This document shows, piece by piece, positions 4,289-31,886 of a stretch of DNA of 64,000 bases. Position 1 is the first letter of the stretch, and each line of letters opens with the position of its first letter. Made by a program: the position numbers and the translations under genes. The stretch spans positions 43,347 through 107,346 of the forward strand of contig CAYFMM010000004.1 of NCBI GenBank assembly GCA_964344285.1, given 5' to 3'. This DNA is from an uncultured Methanosarcinales archaeon (GTDB lineage: Archaea; Nanobdellota; Nanobdellia; Woesearchaeales; GW2011-AR9). The notes under the pieces are model-generated. The model ran no database searches. It worked only from the letters and a program-made list of their open reading frames with translations, and was not told the DNA's origin.

Positions 4289-4309
4289 ATTACAACCTCT
4301 GCAATGGTG

Positions 4310-4460
4310 GTGAGCAACGCCCTGACGGTTCAAAAAGAAACAACGATTTCTTTTGAACGCCAGAATCAACTTGTTGGTTCTGATGCGAGTCGAGGGACAC
4401 GGTGCAGTAATTAAAAAACAAATTCAATACGCGCCGTAATAGGTCCCGTGCCTTGCTCAC
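4310..4460 (+). ncRNA. candidate structured RNA element, copy A of a two-copy family
   Basis: GC-rich 151-nt island in an AT-rich genome, closed by the 8-bp helix GUGAGCAA/UUGCUCAC. It holds an internal hairpin with loop ACAACGAU, a 12-bp composite helix GGGAC-ACGGUGC/GCGCCGU-GUCCC, and motifs CGCCCUGACG, GCGAGUCGAGG, CAGUAAUU and CCGUGCC shared with 26666-26881. G-U pairs favour the + strand. Confidence 0.4.
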
Positions 4461-9574: not shown

Positions 9575-10672
9575 TTATCTTTCCTTAGTCTCTAAAACAG
9601 AATTTTCAAACACAAAACCAACACGCAAAAATTTCTCTGTAACATAGATGTTGCTCTCTGTGTGCTTACTCAATTTACTCGCCTTAATCTTTGAACCAAC
9701 AAGTAATCCCATATATACCACAAGTTGATCCTCTAAAAACTCGTCAACTACCTCTTCTTGCTCAATTCTCTCACGTAACTGATGTGCAGCCTCCTGACCA
9801 ATTATTTCTGACTTTTTTCCTAGTTCTAACAATGCGTCTGCTCCTAAAATCGTTGGGTTATCAAAACTCATTTTTCCATCAACATCACTAAACATTGCCC
9901 ATAGTACAACTTCTCCTCCATTGCAAGAACTATTACTATACTCTGTCCTAATCATTATTGGCACATCTAAGTTAAGTAAACTTCCCTTAGCAGCTTTTGC
10001 AACTCGCTGTGCAATTTCTTTTTCTAACAAACTCTGTGAAACATTCACTACTCCCTTGATTTGTTGTAATTCTCCTCTCTTAGTCAAATTAATTAGTGCA
10101 CATTTATATCTTAATTCTTCACAAAATTCCCCTAAAGAACCATATTCTGTAATGTGAAACCTAGGTGTTACCTCAACAACAACTTCTCCTTGTCCTTTTG
10201 GAAAATAGCCTCGGCGAATTACCTTTAATTCTACTTTTTCTACAAACCTTTTCAAATGTGGGAATAATACATTTTGAATATAATCTACTGATGCCTGCCA
10301 TTTCCCACAAGTTCCTCCCGTAACCTGCAATGTAACTTTTCCAGGAGCAAACATACATACAGGGAGCACTGCTTGTAAAAATAGTGAAATACTTCCAGCA
10401 GTGCCAATATCAAAATTAAACTTTCCTCGCTTAATCTTTCCTGGGATAAAATGAACGTACTCACTTCCCAATGCAACCTCGTTTGTCTTTGCCCTGCAAA
10501 TCTCTTTTAATGCCTTAATTGCCGTAAGGTGCTGCGCCTTTAATCCTGGTTTTTCTCTGCCTGCTCGAATATTTCGGATTTTACATTCCTCGCCTGTTAA
10601 TGCAGAAAGAGCTAAAGCAGTTCTCACTAAGGCTCCTCCTCCCTCACCATAATTACCATCAATTTCTATCAT
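9575..10672 (-). CDS. rtcA: RNA 3'-terminal phosphate cyclase RtcA
   Basis: 'GEGGGALVRTALALSALTG', 'HLTAIKAL' and 'DIGTAGSISLFLQAVLP' match the RtcA family. 365 aa. Confidence 0.85.
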   Translation of the reverse strand: MIEIDGNYGEGGGALVRTALALSALTGEECKIRNIRAGREKPGLKAQHLTAIKALKEICRAKTNEVALGSEYVHFIPGKIKRGKFNFDIGTAGSISLFLQAVLPVCMFAPGKVTLQVTGGTCGKWQASVDYIQNVLFPHLKRFVEKVELKVIRRGYFPKGQGEVVVEVTPRFHITEYGSLGEFCEELRYKCALINLTKRGELQQIKGVVNVSQSLLEKEIAQRVAKAAKGSLLNLDVPIMIRTEYSNSSCNGGEVVLWAMFSDVDGKMSFDNPTILGADALLELGKKSEIIGQEAAHQLRERIEQEEVVDEFLEDQLVVYMGLLVGSKIKASKLSKHTESNIYVTEKFLRVGFVFENSVLETKER

Positions 10673-10724
10673 AGTTTTTGATTTTGGTCAGAATGTTATT
10701 AAAGTTTTGTTTCCTTAAGGTAAT

Positions 10725-11111
10725 ATGAAACAATGGCCAAATACTAAACTCTTGTCTTTGATCTGTGCAGGACTCCTTGCTGCGGGTGCTACGCTAGCGC
10801 ATTTATCGCGACTGTCATATGATGTCTCTAGGGACTTTAATGGTCAGATTGATAACTGCTATGTGCAACGTTTTCAAGAAGGTTCTGGGGCTAAAGATGA
10901 TCCAGTGTATGAAGAAATAACTGTGACATGTCCAGATAAAACAATGATTTTTTATGATGATAAACCATTTGGTTCTTTAGATGAAATAAAAACTGCAACA
11001 ACATCAAACGCCACATACGATAGAAGGACTGGAAGGTCAATAATGCAAAAACAACACGAACTCTTTCAAGCTTACTCAAACACAATTAACTCAAAATTAG
11101 GTTTACAATAA
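10725..11111 (+). CDS. small secreted hypothetical protein
   Basis: Signal peptide 'LLSLICAGLLAAGATLA'. No known domain. Confidence 0.45.
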   Translation: MKQWPNTKLLSLICAGLLAAGATLAHLSRLSYDVSRDFNGQIDNCYVQRFQEGSGAKDDPVYEEITVTCPDKTMIFYDDKPFGSLDEIKTATTSNATYDRRTGRSIMQKQHELFQAYSNTINSKLGLQ

Positions 11112-11675
11112 ATGCCCCATTTTTTCTTTTTTTGTTTCTAAATATTTGTGATTATGCTCTGTAACTGTTGTTATTAGTTCTTCTCTGACTACACTAATCT
11201 CCGCTTGTTCAATCACTTTTCTTTTTTCTGGATTATTTGTTAATAACCTAATTGATTTAACTCCCATCTGATTTAATATTTCTGCTGCAATTGTAAAATC
11301 ACGTTCATCTTCTTTAAACCCTAAATCAATATTTGCCTCGATTGTATCTTTTCCCTCTTCTTGTAACTTATACGCTTTGATCTTATTTAATAATCCAATG
11401 CCCCTTCCTTCTTGTCGTAAATAAAGCACAATCCCCTCTTTTGCTGCACTGATCTTTTCTAATGCCTTTTCCAATTGTGCACGGCAATCACAGCGCAAAG
11501 AACCAAATACGTCTCCGGTCAAACACTCAGAATGAATCCTTGTAAGCACATGTTCTTTTCCAGAAACCTCTCCTTTTACTAATGCAATATGTTCTTTTTT
11601 GCCATCTGAAAAACAATAAATCTTAAACTCTCCAAACGTACTTGGAAGGCTTGCATTTGCCCGCTTTAAAATCAT
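11103..11675 (-). CDS. ribA: GTP cyclohydrolase II (RibA)
   Basis: 'RIHSECLTGDVFGSLRCDCRAQL' (zinc-binding Cys triad) and 'YLRQEGRGIGLLNKIKAYKLQEEGKDTIEAN' are the classic RibA signatures. Confidence 0.85.
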   Translation of the reverse strand: MILKRANASLPSTFGEFKIYCFSDGKKEHIALVKGEVSGKEHVLTRIHSECLTGDVFGSLRCDCRAQLEKALEKISAAKEGIVLYLRQEGRGIGLLNKIKAYKLQEEGKDTIEANIDLGFKEDERDFTIAAEILNQMGVKSIRLLTNNPEKRKVIEQAEISVVREELITTVTEHNHKYLETKKEKMGHLL

Positions 11676-11718
11676 CTCTTTGCAAGAAGCAGGTTGCTTT
11701 ATATTAATTATGTACGAA

Positions 11719-11733
11719 AAGGTTATAAATCAC
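11719..11733 (+). promoter_or_regulatory. archaeal TATA box (GGTTATAAAT) with purine-rich BRE, about 26 nt upstream of the candidate RNA 5' end
   Basis: 'cgaaaaggttataaatcac' sits at archaeal promoter spacing from 11752/11753. Confidence 0.45.
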
Positions 11734-11752
11734 GTTCTTTCTCAACTTTCTT

Positions 11753-11971
11753 GTGGGGACGTAGTATAAATTCACTCGCTCTTTGCGATGATGTACATCC
11801 TGGCTAGAAGTGGTCTTTAAGGCTGCTAGTCAAAATGGTCGGCTCCAGTCATGGAGCGCTGAGGCGCATGCCAATGAAGTTCGCGGTTGAAACCGACAGA
11901 TCTGGGAAGTAACATTATTGTTGCTCAGAAATTCGAAAGGTTTTCTACCACGAAAGTCCCAGCGTCCCCAC
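11753..11971 (+). ncRNA. candidate novel structured RNA (~219 nt), family unassigned
   Basis: GC-rich island with no ORF of 60 aa or more on either strand. A 9-bp terminal helix GUGGGGACG/CGUCCCCAC brackets it. Internal hairpins include GCUCCA-GUCA-UGGAGC, CUGGGA...UCCCAG, AGUAACA-UUAU-UGUUGCU and UGGCUAG...CUAGUCA. A T-tract UUUUUU follows immediately at 11972-11977 and a TATA box lies 26 nt upstream. Confidence 0.5.
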
Positions 11972-11993
11972 TTTTTTCACTTCTGAGATGTTT

Positions 11994-12635
11994 TTAATTC
12001 TTTGTTCTAATCTCTTTAAACCTTGTAATGTGCTTTTGATTTTTTGGATTTACTCTCCTGAAGAATGCATCAACCTCTTTTTGTCTACAAAGATAAAATT
12101 TCCAATACATTGTATTTTTGTCTTTATTTACTCCTCTTTCTATTTTTGTAGGGCTAAATCCTAGTTTTTCAAGAGCATCATGGAGAGAAGAAATAAGCCC
12201 AATTGATCCAAACTTAAAGTGGATCTGTGCATATCTGTCATATTTTCTATAAACGCATCCATCGGTGTCAAAAAGACCCCTAATCGCTTTAATTACATAT
12301 CTCTCTTTTAAGAAAATCCAAAGAGGAATCTCAACCTCATTGGCTACCTTATTGCCGGGCTTTAATCCTAATTCAACTAATATTTCTCCTATTTTAACAC
12401 TGCCATTTCTTAATAAATTAGCATTGCCTAAATTAGTTATACAAAATTTATAACTAAATTCTTCTTCAAATAATTTTTTCACATAATGTAGGTAATCTTG
12501 TTCCTTTTTATCTAGACAAACTGCAACTTGATACTTGTTGCTCCTTTTCTCTTTGTACAGACAACCATCACCTAGCATGATTCCAACAATCTCAGCTAAA
12601 TTTTCATTAAATTCCATTTTATATTCTCTTTTCAC
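11994..12635 (-). CDS. free-standing LAGLIDADG family endonuclease (two-motif, single chain)
   Basis: Two LAGLIDADG motifs, 'LAEIVGIMLGDGCL' and 'IRGLFDTDGCV', in a 213-aa protein. It is not embedded in an intron or an intein. Confidence 0.7.
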   Translation of the reverse strand: MKREYKMEFNENLAEIVGIMLGDGCLYKEKRSNKYQVAVCLDKKEQDYLHYVKKLFEEEFSYKFCITNLGNANLLRNGSVKIGEILVELGLKPGNKVANEVEIPLWIFLKERYVIKAIRGLFDTDGCVYRKYDRYAQIHFKFGSIGLISSLHDALEKLGFSPTKIERGVNKDKNTMYWKFYLCRQKEVDAFFRRVNPKNQKHITRFKEIRTKN

Positions 12636-12718
12636 TCTGAATAATAAAGAGAAAATAAACTTAATCTAATGGTTAATAAATTCTAGCTGAACTTGACCAG
12701 TGGGTAGTGGATATATTT

Positions 12719-13162
12719 TTATTTTATCTCTACACTATCTCTTACTTCTAACCCAACTCTTTTCACTTCTCCAGCATTTAACTCTAATACATACAATGCT
12801 TCTGTGTCTAAACTTCCATACACTGGACAAGGATCTTCTTCACATGGTTGTACGTTCTGTAAGATTTCAACAACCCTGTATTCCGCATTAATCCAAATAA
12901 TATCTAATGGGATTAATGTATTTTTCATCCAGAATTGATGCGCTTTAGATTCTTCAAACACAAAAAGCATCCCCGAATTTCTTGCCAAATGATCTCGATA
13001 CATCAATCCTTGCTGCCTTTCCTCCGGTGTCTCTGCTAATTCTACATCGTAACATTGATCTCTAATACAAACTTCTTGCTTAGATTCAGTAAATACTAAC
13101 ACAAGAAAAACTGCCAACAAAATCATTCCTACAACAATTACAAATTGCCACTTTCCTTTCAT
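12719..13162 (-). CDS. DUF192 (COG1430) family protein, membrane-anchored
   Basis: 'QQGLMYRDHLARNSGMLFVFEESKAHQFWMKNTLIPLDIIWINAEYRVVEI' matches the DUF192 signature. The start was moved to the internal Met (MKGKWQF) to avoid overlap with the divergent permease gene. Confidence 0.65.
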   Translation of the reverse strand: MKGKWQFVIVVGMILLAVFLVLVFTESKQEVCIRDQCYDVELAETPEERQQGLMYRDHLARNSGMLFVFEESKAHQFWMKNTLIPLDIIWINAEYRVVEILQNVQPCEEDPCPVYGSLDTEALYVLELNAGEVKRVGLEVRDSVEIK

Positions 13163-13238
13163 ATCCTTAGGATTTTCTACCTCTATATTAATGCTACGTA
13201 TCCAAACAATTATAAACCCAATTTTATTTCTAAAAATC

Positions 13239-14432
13239 ATGTACAAAAAAAGAGGCACTCCTTATGTTCCAACCGGGATTGGCAAACGTAAACTTCTTGT
13301 TGCAACAACAATGCTTGTTGGTACAATCGTTGGAGCAGGAATTTTAGGAATCCCCTATGTTATTGCAAAAGCAGGATTTCTCTATGGCTTAGGTCTTATT
13401 GTGGCACTAGGTGTAGTTATTCTCTTTGTAAATCTCTTTATGGGTGAAGTAGTATTAAGAACAAAAAAGCAACACCAACTTACCGGGTATGCTGAGAAAT
13501 ATCTTGGTAAATGGGGCAAGCGAATTATGCTCTTTTCAATGCTTATCTCTCTTTATGGAGCACTCACTGCATATCTTATTGGAGAAGGACAAACACTTTT
13601 TTCTATCTTTAAATTTGGATCTCCTCTGCTCTATTCGCTTGTCTTTTTTATTATCACATCAATAATTATATATTCTGGAATCAAAGCGACAGGAAAAGCT
13701 GAGCTATATCTTATCCTTCTTCTAACATTAGTTGTTGCAGCTATCGGAATTTTCTCCTTTGACAAAATTCAATTTTCTAATTTTTCCGCATTTAATCCAG
13801 CCTATCTTTTCCTCCCATATGGTGTTGTTCTCTTTGCCTACCTTGGAGCTCCTGCAATTCCAGAGATGCAAGAAGAAATTGGTAAACACAAAAAACTCAT
13901 GAAAAAAGCAATTGTCTTTGGCTCTATTGCGCCGGTTGTTTTATACCTTATTTTTACAATTATTATTGTCGGTGTAATTGGCTTACCTAACTTTGAATTA
14001 CTTGCTCCAAATGAGAGGATTGCAACAGTCGCATTAAGTATGTACTCTCATCCTCTACTTGGTCTTCTTGCTAACTTTCTAGCGGTCCTTGCGATGTTTA
14101 CTTCATATTTAACTATTGGGATGGCATTATTTCAAATGTATCATTACGATTTTTCTATTACTAAAACTACCTCTTTATCCTTGATTTCTCTGCCTCTCAT
14201 TATAGTTTTATTTGACATCACTTCTTTTATTGCCGTAGTTGGCGCAACGGGTGCAATTGCTGGGGGCTTGGAAGGAATTCTTATCGTCTTAATGTATTGG
14301 AAATCTAAACTACTTGGTGATAGAAAACCAGAATACCAATTACCAAAACACAAGCTTATTGGAACTATCATTATCCTGGTATTCCTACTAGGTGTGCTAC
14401 AACAACTTTTTGCAAAATTCTTTTTCTCCTAG
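13239..14432 (+). CDS. amino acid permease (APC/AAAP-type transporter)
   Basis: About 11 TM helices. The N-terminal 'LLVATTMLVGTIVGAGILGIPYVIAKAG' is typical of amino-acid transporter families. Start placed at MYKKRG. Confidence 0.7.
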   Translation: MYKKRGTPYVPTGIGKRKLLVATTMLVGTIVGAGILGIPYVIAKAGFLYGLGLIVALGVVILFVNLFMGEVVLRTKKQHQLTGYAEKYLGKWGKRIMLFSMLISLYGALTAYLIGEGQTLFSIFKFGSPLLYSLVFFIITSIIIYSGIKATGKAELYLILLLTLVVAAIGIFSFDKIQFSNFSAFNPAYLFLPYGVVLFAYLGAPAIPEMQEEIGKHKKLMKKAIVFGSIAPVVLYLIFTIIIVGVIGLPNFELLAPNERIATVALSMYSHPLLGLLANFLAVLAMFTSYLTIGMALFQMYHYDFSITKTTSLSLISLPLIIVLFDITSFIAVVGATGAIAGGLEGILIVLMYWKSKLLGDRKPEYQLPKHKLIGTIIILVFLLGVLQQLFAKFFFS

Positions 14433-26594: not shown

Positions 26595-26665
26595 TTGAAC
26601 TTAGCAAGTAAATCAATTTAAAAGCTTTATGGAGAACTAGGCTCTGTCCAGAAAGGAGGGTTTTT

Positions 26666-26881
26666 GTATACTAGCGCCCTGACGCATAAAAACCAACAAC
26701 GATTGGTTTTTGGCGCAAGAATAAAGTCTTCTGCTTTATTCTTTGCGTAGTCGAGGCGCATGATGCACTAATTGACGATAAGATAAATATGCATCATCCA
26801 CAATAAAGACAAAGTGCTTTATTGGGATCCAAACAAAGTAGTTTCTTTGTTCTGGATGATGGGCGCCGTGCCCTAGTATAC
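26666..26881 (+). ncRNA. candidate structured RNA element, copy B of the two-copy family
   Basis: Terminal helix GUAUACUAG/CUAGUAUAC. Hairpin AAAAACC-[AACAACGAUU]-GGUUUUU. Shares motifs CGCCCUGACG, GCGUAGUCGAGG, CACUAAUU, GCGCCGU and CCGUGCC with copy A. Carries a roughly 85-nt insertion relative to A. The T-tract UUUUU comes 2 nt after the 3' helix. Confidence 0.4.
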
Positions 26882-27001
26882 ATTTTTACTCCTTTCCGGA
26901 TGAAGCCGGAGAATTAAGATGATTGTAATAAAGAAATTTGGTCACATCTCTCTTTTTTTTGGTCATAACCTTTAAATAAGGATATTTGTCTTAAAGTAAG
27001 G

Positions 27002-29848: not shown

Positions 29849-29894
29849 TTTTTATTCACGATGCGCTTTTTATATAAGCTTAATCTAGAAAAAA

Positions 29895-29987
29895 GCCCCT
29901 GGAGGGATTTGAACCCTCGGTCTTTCGCTTATTGCCCGTTATTTATCATAACTCGAGGCGAACGCTCTACCGCTAAGCTACAGAGGC
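29895..29987 (-). tRNA. intron-containing tRNA (anticodon CAU, CGU or CGA depending on the splice junction)
   Basis: Acceptor GCCUCUG/CAGGGGC with discriminator U. D-arm GCUU-AGCGGUA-GAGC. Anticodon stem UUCGC/GCGAA interrupted by about 21-22 nt. Variable loop AGACC. T-arm GAGGG-UUCAAAU-CCCUC. No encoded CCA. Confidence 0.8.
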
Positions 29988-30476: not shown

Positions 30477-31886
30477 TTGTATGACACTTTCCAATTTGAG
30501 GTGAGAAAAGTGTTAGACTACAAAAATGATCCTTTACTGTTGGATAAGAAAACATTCAACGACCTAATTGGAGAAAAGAATGAAAACATTTTATTTCTCG
30601 ATAAAGAGTCTAAAATATTAAATCTTTTTTCTGCTTTTGTAAAAAAAAGTGATTTTATTAAAGATCATAAACTTAATCAACCATTACAAAAGACTGTTTA
30701 TGTCAAGGTAAGTAAAGAACTAATTAGGATTTTGAGAAATCGATGCAACAAAACAAACGATATTCAAAAGTTAATTGAAACTTATACCAAACGAAGAACT
30801 AACTGCAGAGACGCTGTTAACAGATGGTTTGTGTCAGGTATTTTTCCCTTCATTCTCCTTAGGATTTTATCTAAAAATAATACTGAATTTTCAGGTTGGA
30901 TTTCTGAAATAAGATATTTTACAGATTTTCTTGGTAAATCTAAACTCTATTCTCCGAAGACTTTGTCTGAATTGTTAAGTCATAAGCTTGTTTACTTTGT
31001 TGGGTGTTCAGTAGGAGATGGACATATTGATAAAAACGGTAAAAGGTGGGTATTGGTTGATGGAAGCTCTGATCCAAAAAGATTAATTCTTTCAGGAGAA
31101 TTTGTATCAAATTTAAGTAATCTGTTGAGTGATTATATTGATGCATTTAAGATTGTAAAACACAAAACGAAATATGAGTTAAAAGTGAATAATAAATTAT
31201 TTTGTAGGTTTCTAAATTTCTTTTTTGGGCTTCCTTATGGGTCAAAGAAAGAGAAAATATTGAGGGTTCCATTAATCCTAAAATATTCTGGTTCAAACTT
31301 AGAAAAATACTTTTGGAGGGGATGTTTCGATACTGATGGGAGTGCAGTTCGCTCCATTGGTTTTTGTTCTTCTGATAAGAACTTAATTAGTCAGTGTGAT
31401 GATTACCTTAAATCATTGGGAATAAAGGTAAATTTGGGTAAGAAAAACATTAGAATTCCAGTTCCGAGTCTTAAAGAATGGACTTCTATTGGCTTTGCTC
31501 ATCCTAGAAAACAAATAGAATTCTTAACGACACTTAAGAAAGGAGCGAAATTTAAATTACTAAAAATAAAGGAAAAAGACAATGTGCCTTATGCGTTACG
31601 TAGAATTCATAGATTATTACAAGTTGATAGGAACGGATATAGGGTGAGGATTAATTCGTCTGCTTTGAAAGAACAGGAAATACCTGTTCAAAACGTCAAT
31701 GATATCATGAAAAAACTGTTTAACTGTGAGTTTAGACAAGCATCAAATAATCTTTATTACTTTAAATCTAAAAAAGTATATAGCTATTTACGGAGTATTT
31801 TTATATATGAACCTGCTTGGCAAGCAATAAATGATGATGAAGAGGAGCAATTCCTCTGTAATTGGAATGATGTGTGGAGAAAATGA
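30477..31886 (+). CDS. LAGLIDADG-domain protein with about 170-aa N-terminal extension
   Basis: Two LAGLIDADG motifs, 'LVYFVGCSVGDGHI' and 'FWRGCFDTDGSA'. The stop overlaps the ABCE1 start (ATGA). Confidence 0.65.
   Translation: MYDTFQFEVRKVLDYKNDPLLLDKKTFNDLIGEKNENILFLDKESKILNLFSAFVKKSDFIKDHKLNQPLQKTVYVKVSKELIRILRNRCNKTNDIQKLIETYTKRRTNCRDAVNRWFVSGIFPFILLRILSKNNTEFSGWISEIRYFTDFLGKSKLYSPKTLSELLSHKLVYFVGCSVGDGHIDKNGKRWVLVDGSSDPKRLILSGEFVSNLSNLLSDYIDAFKIVKHKTKYELKVNNKLFCRFLNFFFGLPYGSKKEKILRVPLILKYSGSNLEKYFWRGCFDTDGSAVRSIGFCSSDKNLISQCDDYLKSLGIKVNLGKKNIRIPVPSLKEWTSIGFAHPRKQIEFLTTLKKGAKFKLLKIKEKDNVPYALRRIHRLLQVDRNGYRVRINSSALKEQEIPVQNVNDIMKKLFNCEFRQASNNLYYFKSKKVYSYLRSIFIYEPAWQAINDDEEEQFLCNWNDVWRK

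Follow-up and report, generated by a model that had tools for sequence, protein, structure and literature searches.

In this study, the element at positions 11753-11971 of the window (the whole 64,000-nt stretch of contig CAYFMM010000004.1 that was analysed) is assigned with high confidence to a tRNA-Trp(CCA) gene of a Woesearchaeota-like DPANN (Diapherotrites, Parvarchaeota, Aenigmarchaeota, Nanoarchaeota and Nanohaloarchaeota) archaeon, located at 11755-11970 on the plus strand and interrupted by five introns. Six exons of 15, 9, 15, 15, 6 and 14 nt make up a tRNA of 74 nt. In a preliminary description of this DNA, the element was taken for an RNA of unassigned class and tRNA was among the classes excluded; that exclusion was wrong, and the spliced sequence is called tRNA-Trp by ARAGORN. 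The gene is concealed from standard tRNA finders by its extra introns. The DPANN host proposed at the same time is supported, the closest relatives being Woesearchaeota/Nanoarchaeota.

Identification of the tRNA-Trp gene and its exons

The unspliced element has no match in Rfam at the gathering score and none at E ≤ 10, and ARAGORN reports no tRNA in it. Its identity emerges from comparison with a syntenic relative. The best homologues of ribA, the left neighbour, are only 64% identical and lie on non-syntenic contigs, and the Logan contigs with an identical ribA are from the same strain, with a 100% identical RNA that adds no comparative information. For RtcA, encoded another 1 kb to the left, there are many homologues (55-63% identity) with Woesearchaeota/Nanoarchaeota names, and the contigs of one of them (P0126) keep the order permease, gap, RtcA. 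The 294-nt gap between the amino-acid permease gene and RtcA holds a 122-nt gene, whose two ends and middle part are collinear with the window element. This gene matches the Rfam tRNA family (RF00005; 46.3 bits against a threshold of 29; E = 5.8e-9) and contains a single insertion of 52 nt in the anticodon loop; the loop is CUCCAG and the anticodon is therefore CCA (Trp). A significant Rfam match had been named in the preliminary description as a result that would speak against a new RNA: it is absent for the unspliced window sequence and present for this syntenic orthologue. The two genes have in common the acceptor stem GGGGACG/CGUCCCC, A73, U8 and A9, the D-stem strand GUAU, the D-loop CCUGGCUA, the anticodon stem GUCGG/CCGAC with its loop CUCCAG, the variable loop AGAU and the T-stem CUGGG/CCCAG.

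Exon-intron boundaries were set by alignment to the mature tRNAs of 39 single-intron relatives, in which long gaps were made cheap. Five insertions were found, at 15/16 (29 nt), 22/23 (26 nt), 37/38 (43 nt), 53/54 (25 nt) and 59/60 (19 nt). The parts of the gene, all on the plus strand, are as follows.

11716-11730, plus strand: putative promoter, with a transcription factor B recognition element (BRE)-like GAAAAGG (11716-11722) and the TATA box TTATAAAT (11723-11730)
11755-11769, plus strand: exon 1, positions 1-15, with acceptor strand GGGGACG, U8 A9, D-stem GUAU and A14 A15 (alignment, ARAGORN)
11770-11798, plus strand: intron 1, 29 nt, at 15/16 in the D-loop (comparison with relatives, minimum free energy (MFE) fold)
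11799-11807, plus strand: exon 2, positions 16-22, CCUGGCUAG, the remaining D-loop with G18 G19, A21, plus G22 (alignment, ARAGORN)
11808-11833, plus strand: intron 2, 26 nt, at 22/23 in the 3' strand of the D-stem (comparison, MFE folds)
11834-11848, plus strand: exon 3, positions 23-37, with AAU, G26, GUCGG and C32 U33 C34 C35 A36 G37 (alignment, ARAGORN)
11849-11891, plus strand: intron 3, 43 nt, canonical 37/38 (ARAGORN -i after removal of the other four)
11892-11906, plus strand: exon 4, positions 38-53, with A38, CCGAC, variable loop AGAU and T-stem CUGGG (alignment, ARAGORN)
11907-11931, plus strand: intron 4, 25 nt, at 53/54 (comparison, MFE folds)
11932-11937, plus strand: exon 5, positions 54-59, UUCGAA of the T-loop (alignment, ARAGORN)
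11938-11956, plus strand: intron 5, 19 nt, at 59/60 (comparison, fold)
11957-11970, plus strand: exon 6, positions 60-73, with U60, CCCAG, CGUCCCC and discriminator A73 (alignment, ARAGORN)
11972-11977, plus strand: oligo-T (T6) terminator (sequence)

When the four non-canonical insertions are removed, ARAGORN reports tRNA-Trp(cca) with a 43-nt canonical intron, and when all five are removed it reports tRNA-Trp(cca) with a clean cloverleaf. The spliced molecule has a 7-bp acceptor stem, G18 G19 in the D-loop (CCUGGCUA), a 5-bp anticodon stem (GUCGG/CCGAC), a 7-nt anticodon loop with U33 and CCA (CUCCAG|A, where the bar marks the canonical splice site), a 5-bp T-stem, a UUCRAAU loop and a discriminator base. 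The CCA end is not encoded.

Reinterpretation of the structures seen in the unspliced element

The features read earlier from the DNA are present. GC content is 0.44-0.46 in 11753-11971 and about 0.28-0.38 in the flanks, and no open reading frame (ORF) of at least 40 aa overlaps the element, in agreement with the description of a GC-rich and ORF-free stretch. The TATA box, preceded by purine-rich GAAAAGG, and the six T directly after C11971 bear out the proposed promoter and terminator at the level of sequence, and an independent RNA gene on the plus strand, with an archaeal-type promoter and an oligo-T terminator, is supported. The TATA box starts 32 nt ahead of tRNA position 1, and across the 83 tRNA-Trp genes compared below TATA-like motifs concentrate at -31 to -35 relative to G1; in 62 of the 83, four or more T in a row occur in the first 12 nt past the gene. 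The plus strand folds with an MFE of -82.1 kcal/mol (z = -4.8; 0 of 200 shuffles as good) and the minus strand more weakly (-70.2 kcal/mol; z = -3.8), and several helices depend on G-U pairs that are possible on the plus strand alone.

The helices named in the preliminary description exist too, but each has another meaning. The terminal 9-bp helix GUGGGGACG/CGUCCCCAC is not a feature of its own: it consists of the 7-bp acceptor stem and two flanking pairs. The hairpin GCUCCA-GUCA-UGGAGC is the anticodon loop paired with the guide of the canonical intron. In the composite hairpin, CUGGG(A)/(U)CCCAG is the T-stem, and the enclosed AGUAACA-UUAU-UGUUGCU is the inner helix of the 53/54 intron. In the helix UGGCUAG/CUAGUCA, the D-loop pairs with the 3' end of the 22/23 intron. 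The motif GAAAGUCC, rightly held not to belong to an RNase P RNA, consists of the final nucleotides of intron 5 and the T-stem to which they are joined. For signal recognition particle RNA, H/ACA RNA and stand-alone C/D RNA, neither defining motifs nor Rfam matches (gathering score or E ≤ 10) were found.

Comparison with tRNA-Trp genes of related archaea

A scan with the pattern CTCCAGTNATGGAGNGNTGAG, which covers the anticodon loop, the intron guide and the box, was made with one genome per species and returned 88 loci, nearly all of them from Woesearchaeota/Nanoarchaeota. The final set of 83 genes (108-220 nt) contains the 81 of these 88 loci with a parsable tRNA-Trp, the syntenic gene (L007) and the window gene. 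One intron is present in 38 genes, two in 26, three in 14, four in 4 and five in 1, where L028 and L085 were counted as four-intron genes after manual splicing; the window gene is the only one with five. The four-intron genes come from four other Woesearchaeota species (L028, L038, L049 and L085). The canonical 37/38 site is filled in all 83 genes. For the other sites the aligner labels give rough numbers, with 13 genes filled at 15/16, 11-15 at 22/23, 17 at 53/54 and 10-13 at 59/60. In other species, introns also occupy the variable loop (about 45/46) and positions 56-58 of the T-loop.

The spliced product is called tRNA-Trp(cca) in 82 of the 83 genes, 80 by automatic alignment and two by hand (L028 and L085). 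On 42 spliced sequences the cloverleaf pairs 96.5% of cells, with compensatory changes in 13 of 21 pairs, and slid controls reach 41-52% while 0 of 500 shuffles reach the observed values; the spliced sequences had been fitted to tRNA references, and the covariation test is thereby somewhat biased toward the cloverleaf. These comparisons show the identity of the gene and the position of its exon-intron boundaries.

Splicing motifs and proposed processing

Each junction was examined by the bulge-helix-bulge (BHB) rule, i.e. a central helix of 4 bp, then 2 nt, then the cut, with two 3-nt bulges on opposite strands. Introns 1, 2, 4 and 5, whose junctions were set independently by comparison with relatives, all form 4 of 4 central pairs. 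Most non-canonical introns of the relatives also score 4 of 4, while random placements form 1.56 pairs on average and only 2% of them reach 4. Moreover, exon and intron covary across relatives, with UUCG/CGAA replaced by UUCA/UGAA and UCUG/CAGA by UCCG/CGGA.

In intron 1, the central helix is formed by GUAU of the exon and GUAC of the 3' part of the intron and is followed by a 3-nt A-rich bulge, and the inner hairpin is UCA-C-UCGC/GCGA-UGA. This site is empty in 69 of the 83 genes and filled in 13 others, of which 12 end in GUAC plus 2 nt and one in GUAG. Intron 2 has the central helix GGCU/AGUC, bulges AGA and AAA and an inner hairpin of 8 bp, and its MFE folds consist of the helix, a 3-nt bulge and the hairpin. 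Intron 4 has the central helix UCUG/CAGA, bulges GGA and AAU and the inner hairpin of 7 bp given above, and its MFE folds show 4 bp, a 3-nt bulge and the 7-bp hairpin; introns of clearly similar sequence occupy 53/54 in relatives such as L037, L092 and L023. Intron 5 has the central helix UUCG/CGAA with bulges AAA and AGU.

The proposed pathway can be outlined as follows. The gene would be transcribed from its own TATA/BRE promoter and terminated at T6. The precursor of ~220 nt would fold with its exon-intron boundaries in BHB motifs (two 3-nt bulges with 4 bp between them), the archaeal tRNA splicing endonuclease would cleave each bulge after its second nucleotide, and the exons would be joined by an RtcB-type ligase into the canonical 74-nt tRNA, to which CCA would be added.

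The introns at 53/54 and 59/60 may be removed in a fixed order. The central helix of the 53/54 intron uses the 5' strand of the T-stem. With intron 4 removed, the fold contains a 5-bp T-stem, a 4-bp helix and two staggered 3-nt bulges around intron 5, and ordered splicing can be argued because intron 5 sits in a textbook motif once intron 4 is gone. In this model the full 59/60 motif, with the T-stem as outer helix, is predicted to form only after splicing at 53/54. Some BHB motifs are known to form only once a neighbouring intron has been removed (PMC8450103).

A putative methylation guide in the canonical intron

The intron of archaeal tRNA-Trp contains a box C/D RNA, which guides methylation of C34 and U39 (PMC4090602, PMC11408192). 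In the window gene, the guide UGGAG (11852-11856) of the canonical intron pairs with C32-A36 and is followed by a D'-like box CUGA (11859-11862) and the hairpin GGC-GCAU-GCC (11863-11872). The bulge AAU and then GA (11873-11877), together with the CUGA box and the hairpin, compose a kink-turn (K-turn), a predicted binding site of L7Ae. Counted upstream from CUGA, the fifth nucleotide is G11854, which pairs with C34; in relatives the guide-box spacing is fixed by the search pattern, and its conservation there is not independent evidence. The arrangement of box, hairpin, 3-nt bulge and GA is conserved in 73 of the 83 genes, with 14 different closing stems.

By inspection of the window sequence, the full set of C, D', C' and D boxes with a U39 guide was not seen: no box C lies upstream of the guide, where the sequence is exon, the 3' D box of the intron is degenerate (UUGA), and no complementarity to position 39 appears in the canonical intron. 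We therefore regard it at best as a half-size guide and not as a full member of the class, because nothing beyond the internal box pair and the C34 guide can be recognised in it. By analogy with the Haloferax tRNA-Trp intron, the most likely function is intron-directed 2'-O-methylation of C34, in which the guide would direct fibrillarin/Nop5 to C34 before or after excision of the intron.

Generally, the intron resembles that of the pre-tRNA-Trp of Haloferax volcanii and other euryarchaea, as it lies in the same tRNA at the same 37/38 site and contains a K-turn box pair with C34 paired to the fifth nucleotide from a D'-type box. It differs in that the introns of the window gene (43 nt) and of its relatives (34-91 nt) are much shorter, and in that only the internal D'/C' pair is recognisable, unlike in the Haloferax guide for 2'-O-methylated C34 and U39 (Cm34/Um39). 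The lengths for comparison are a median of about 65 nt and, for the Haloferax tRNA-Trp intron, 105 nt.

Alternative explanations

Several points weigh against the five-intron tRNA-Trp gene. The motif of intron 1 is relaxed, as an outer helix is missing at the 3' splice site; the central helix of intron 3 is weak, with 2 of 4 pairs (C-G, U.U, C.U, C-G) where relatives mostly have 3 of 4, and the BHB form of this canonical intron is not the MFE fold (z = -0.6). The mature D-stem is weak, with an A12.A23 mismatch and two G-U pairs. The search pattern fixes the guide and the D' box, and the conservation of those 18 nt is partly by construction. In addition, the 64 kb covered leave room for a second, simpler tRNA-Trp gene elsewhere in the genome, and we infer expression of a tRNA-Trp from this locus, with its transcription, splicing, splicing order and methylation, from the DNA level. 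The weak central helix and D-stem, the partial coverage of the genome and the indirect view of expression would all suit a decaying tRNA-Trp pseudogene, whose insertions are unspliced junk and whose functional counterpart lies elsewhere. However, in this locus the 74 exon nucleotides are all intact and form a canonical cloverleaf, the differences from relatives are compensatory, promoter and terminator are retained, and the conserved syntenic tRNA-Trp slot is occupied. The four extra insertions keep a perfect 4-bp central helix and 3-nt bulges, which junk would not keep, and relatives with 2-4 of the same introns are common. The A12.A23 mismatch looks like a feature of the clade and not damage, because 25 of 42 relatives have the same mismatch. 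The pseudogene is thus left with a small chance. The earlier reading, a new class of structured non-coding RNA of ~219 nt that is functional unspliced, could appeal to the missing Rfam match, the strong fold and the element's own promoter and terminator, but the element is collinear with tRNA-Trp genes in 82 other genomes, ARAGORN recognises its spliced form, and the listed helices all turn out to be tRNA stems or splicing motifs of introns. Because most relatives lack the extra segments, these cannot be a conserved functional core, and we hold a new RNA class to be very improbable.

Two further explanations are regarded as refuted. In a circularly permuted minimal RNase P RNA, CGACAGAU-CUGGGA would be J2/4 and the 3' strand of P4, GAAAGUCCCAG would be J3/4 and the 5' strand of P4, and the terminal helix would be P5. 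Both GAAAGUCC and CGACAGA are indeed present, each followed by complementary hexamers, but the order of conserved region (CR)-I (GAAAGUCC...) and CR-V (ACAGAA...GGCUUA) is reversed, the proximal pairs of P4 (AAG with CUU) are impossible, and no RNase P family matches at E ≤ 10. A metagenome scan for the P4-like pattern GACAGANCTGGGA...GAAAGTCCCAG returned nothing, and no precedent for a natural permuted RNase P gene was found in the literature. The candidate was dropped since the tRNA alignment explains both motifs: CCGAC-AGAU-CUGGG is the 3' strand of the anticodon stem, the variable loop and the T-stem, and in GAAAG-U-CCCAG the end of intron 5 runs on into the T-stem. The other refuted candidate is a minus-strand cis-regulatory leader, such as a riboswitch of the flavin mononucleotide (FMN) type upstream of ribA. 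It would suit the position of the element, which on that strand lies 78 nt upstream of the ribA start codon. Synteny and strand refute it: the minus strand folds worse, with G-U pairs of the plus strand turned into A-C mismatches, promoter and terminator are on the plus strand, neither an FMN nor any other riboswitch matches, and relatives carry the RNA gene without ribA nearby (0 loci with ribA).

The LAGLIDADG gene and the surrounding locus

The LAGLIDADG gene that was noted beside the RNA gene is real and free-standing.

11994-12635, minus strand: double-motif LAGLIDADG endonuclease gene, free-standing (Pfam LAGLIDADG_3)

It is convergent with the tRNA gene and ends 23 nt from it. The protein has no match among PDB sequences, and its family is small: a search of 5.8 billion proteins yields 70 at E ≤ 1e-10. 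In L087, L042, L037, L086, L057, L114 and L115, a homologue directly follows the 3' end of tRNA-Trp in convergent orientation, and two more, known from protein neighbourhoods, have the same neighbours, with a gap of about 200 nt that holds no gene; every family member with readable context sits at a tRNA-Trp locus. In the scan set, at least three introns are found in 5 of 6 LAGLIDADG-linked genes and in 12 of 69 without it (Fisher p = 0.002, a value that ignores shared ancestry).

One interpretation is a homing endonuclease with its target in or just beyond the tRNA-Trp gene. When the endonuclease gene invades an empty allele, the neighbouring tRNA gene with its many introns would be copied with it by gene conversion, and a carrier whose target is interrupted by introns would also be protected. 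If true, BHB introns without mobility of their own would have a route to spread and pile up, which would explain the five found here. We consider this unlikely at present. Vertical inheritance in one subclade could explain the association, because the LAGLIDADG identities (50-60%) resemble those of RtcA, and the association is a lead for homing and co-conversion, not a finding. Some archaeal rRNA introns carry LAGLIDADG homing endonuclease genes, e.g. I-DmoI. As in those introns, a LAGLIDADG gene is here physically linked to BHB introns of a stable-RNA gene; unlike in them, it lies outside the introns and outside the tRNA gene, 23 nt beyond it and on the opposite strand.

In relatives (comparison with L007), permease and RtcA flank the tRNA-Trp gene alone, whereas the same interval of the window (9575-14432) has in addition DUF192, the LAGLIDADG gene, ribA and a 128-aa ORF. 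No ribA was found near tRNA-Trp among the scanned loci. Insertions at the window locus are suggested by these added genes, and by a ribA that has no close relatives (64% at best) and is not found near tRNA-Trp elsewhere.

A second LAGLIDADG element occurs in the window, separate from this locus: a 469-aa ORF (30477-31886, plus strand) has a LAGLIDADG_3 domain at residues 277-323 and is possibly an intein-containing protein.

Elements B and C and another tRNA in the window

Two further structured elements were found in the window.

about 26647-26900 (core 26668-26883), plus strand: element B, fold MFE -103.8 kcal/mol, z = -8.9
about 4309-4458, plus strand: element C, paralogue of B, 73% identity over 101 nt

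The preliminary description pointed to a 10-nt identity between the tRNA gene and element B. Two copies of the 10-mer GAGGCGCATG are indeed present in the window, at 11861 and 26753, with a chance expectation of 0, but this does not imply homology, as B is not a tRNA; in the tRNA gene the 10-mer combines the GA of the K-turn box with the hairpin. Element B has a long terminal stem, several perfect AT-rich hairpins and K-turn-like CUGA / GAUGAUGG motifs, with a TATA-like box upstream and a T-run downstream. B and C have in common the blocks CGCCCUGACG, the hairpin loop CAACGA, AGUCGAGG and CCGUGCC, and their terminal helices and hairpin stems differ yet stay paired (7 of 30 consensus pairs compensatory). 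Neither has a match in Rfam. A multi-intron tRNA was considered for element B and rejected, its alignment to mature tRNAs scoring like shuffles, and neither B nor C is a tRNA. No homologues of B or C were found in 760 kb of related loci or in viral contigs, and metagenome scans gave 16 matches, all chance matches in GC-rich coding sequence. B and C may represent a lineage-specific family of structured RNA.

The sole tRNA that standard tools find in the window is at 29894-29987 on the minus strand (Rfam 61 bits), and its anticodon loop contains an insertion of 26 nt. Spliced canonically, it would have the anticodon CGA (Ser), and ARAGORN reports 'tRNA-???'. It is ill-suited as a serine tRNA because of its short variable loop.

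Relation to known multi-intron tRNA genes and significance

In reviews and in the tRNAscan-SE 2.0 paper, three introns are the stated maximum for archaeal tRNA genes ('a maximum of three introns', PMC4033280; 'up to three', PMC8450103), and no archaeal tRNA gene reported to have four or five introns was found in the literature searched, which covers part of the journals. The window gene resembles the multi-intron tRNA genes of Thermoproteales (Pyrobaculum, Thermofilum) and of other archaea with splicing endonucleases of relaxed specificity. Its introns are short, both canonical and non-canonical, they lie in the D-loop, D-stem and T-loop, each bounded by a BHB or relaxed motif, and the same position is occupied by similar introns in different genomes. 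The differences are that the window gene has five introns and four relatives have four, against the published three, and that the host is a DPANN archaeon and not a crenarchaeon. The gene thus extends known biology as an extreme case of known multi-intron tRNA genes; it brings no new principle, because the mechanism and the kind of element are already known.

With the usual annotation (ARAGORN, Rfam tRNA model), this genome would appear to have no tRNA-Trp. A 2018 survey suspected that incomplete tRNA sets of DPANN archaea point to undetected disrupted genes (PMC5829648), and the window gene supports that suspicion. Five introns in a 74-nt RNA amount to ten precise cuts and five ligations, with exons down to 6 and 9 nt, and would be a demanding test of the substrate range of the DPANN splicing endonuclease and of splicing order. 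The recurrent LAGLIDADG neighbour offers a testable idea for how such introns move, and the set of 83 orthologues, in which the introns number from one to five and occupy six recurrent positions, is a natural series for the study of intron gain and loss.

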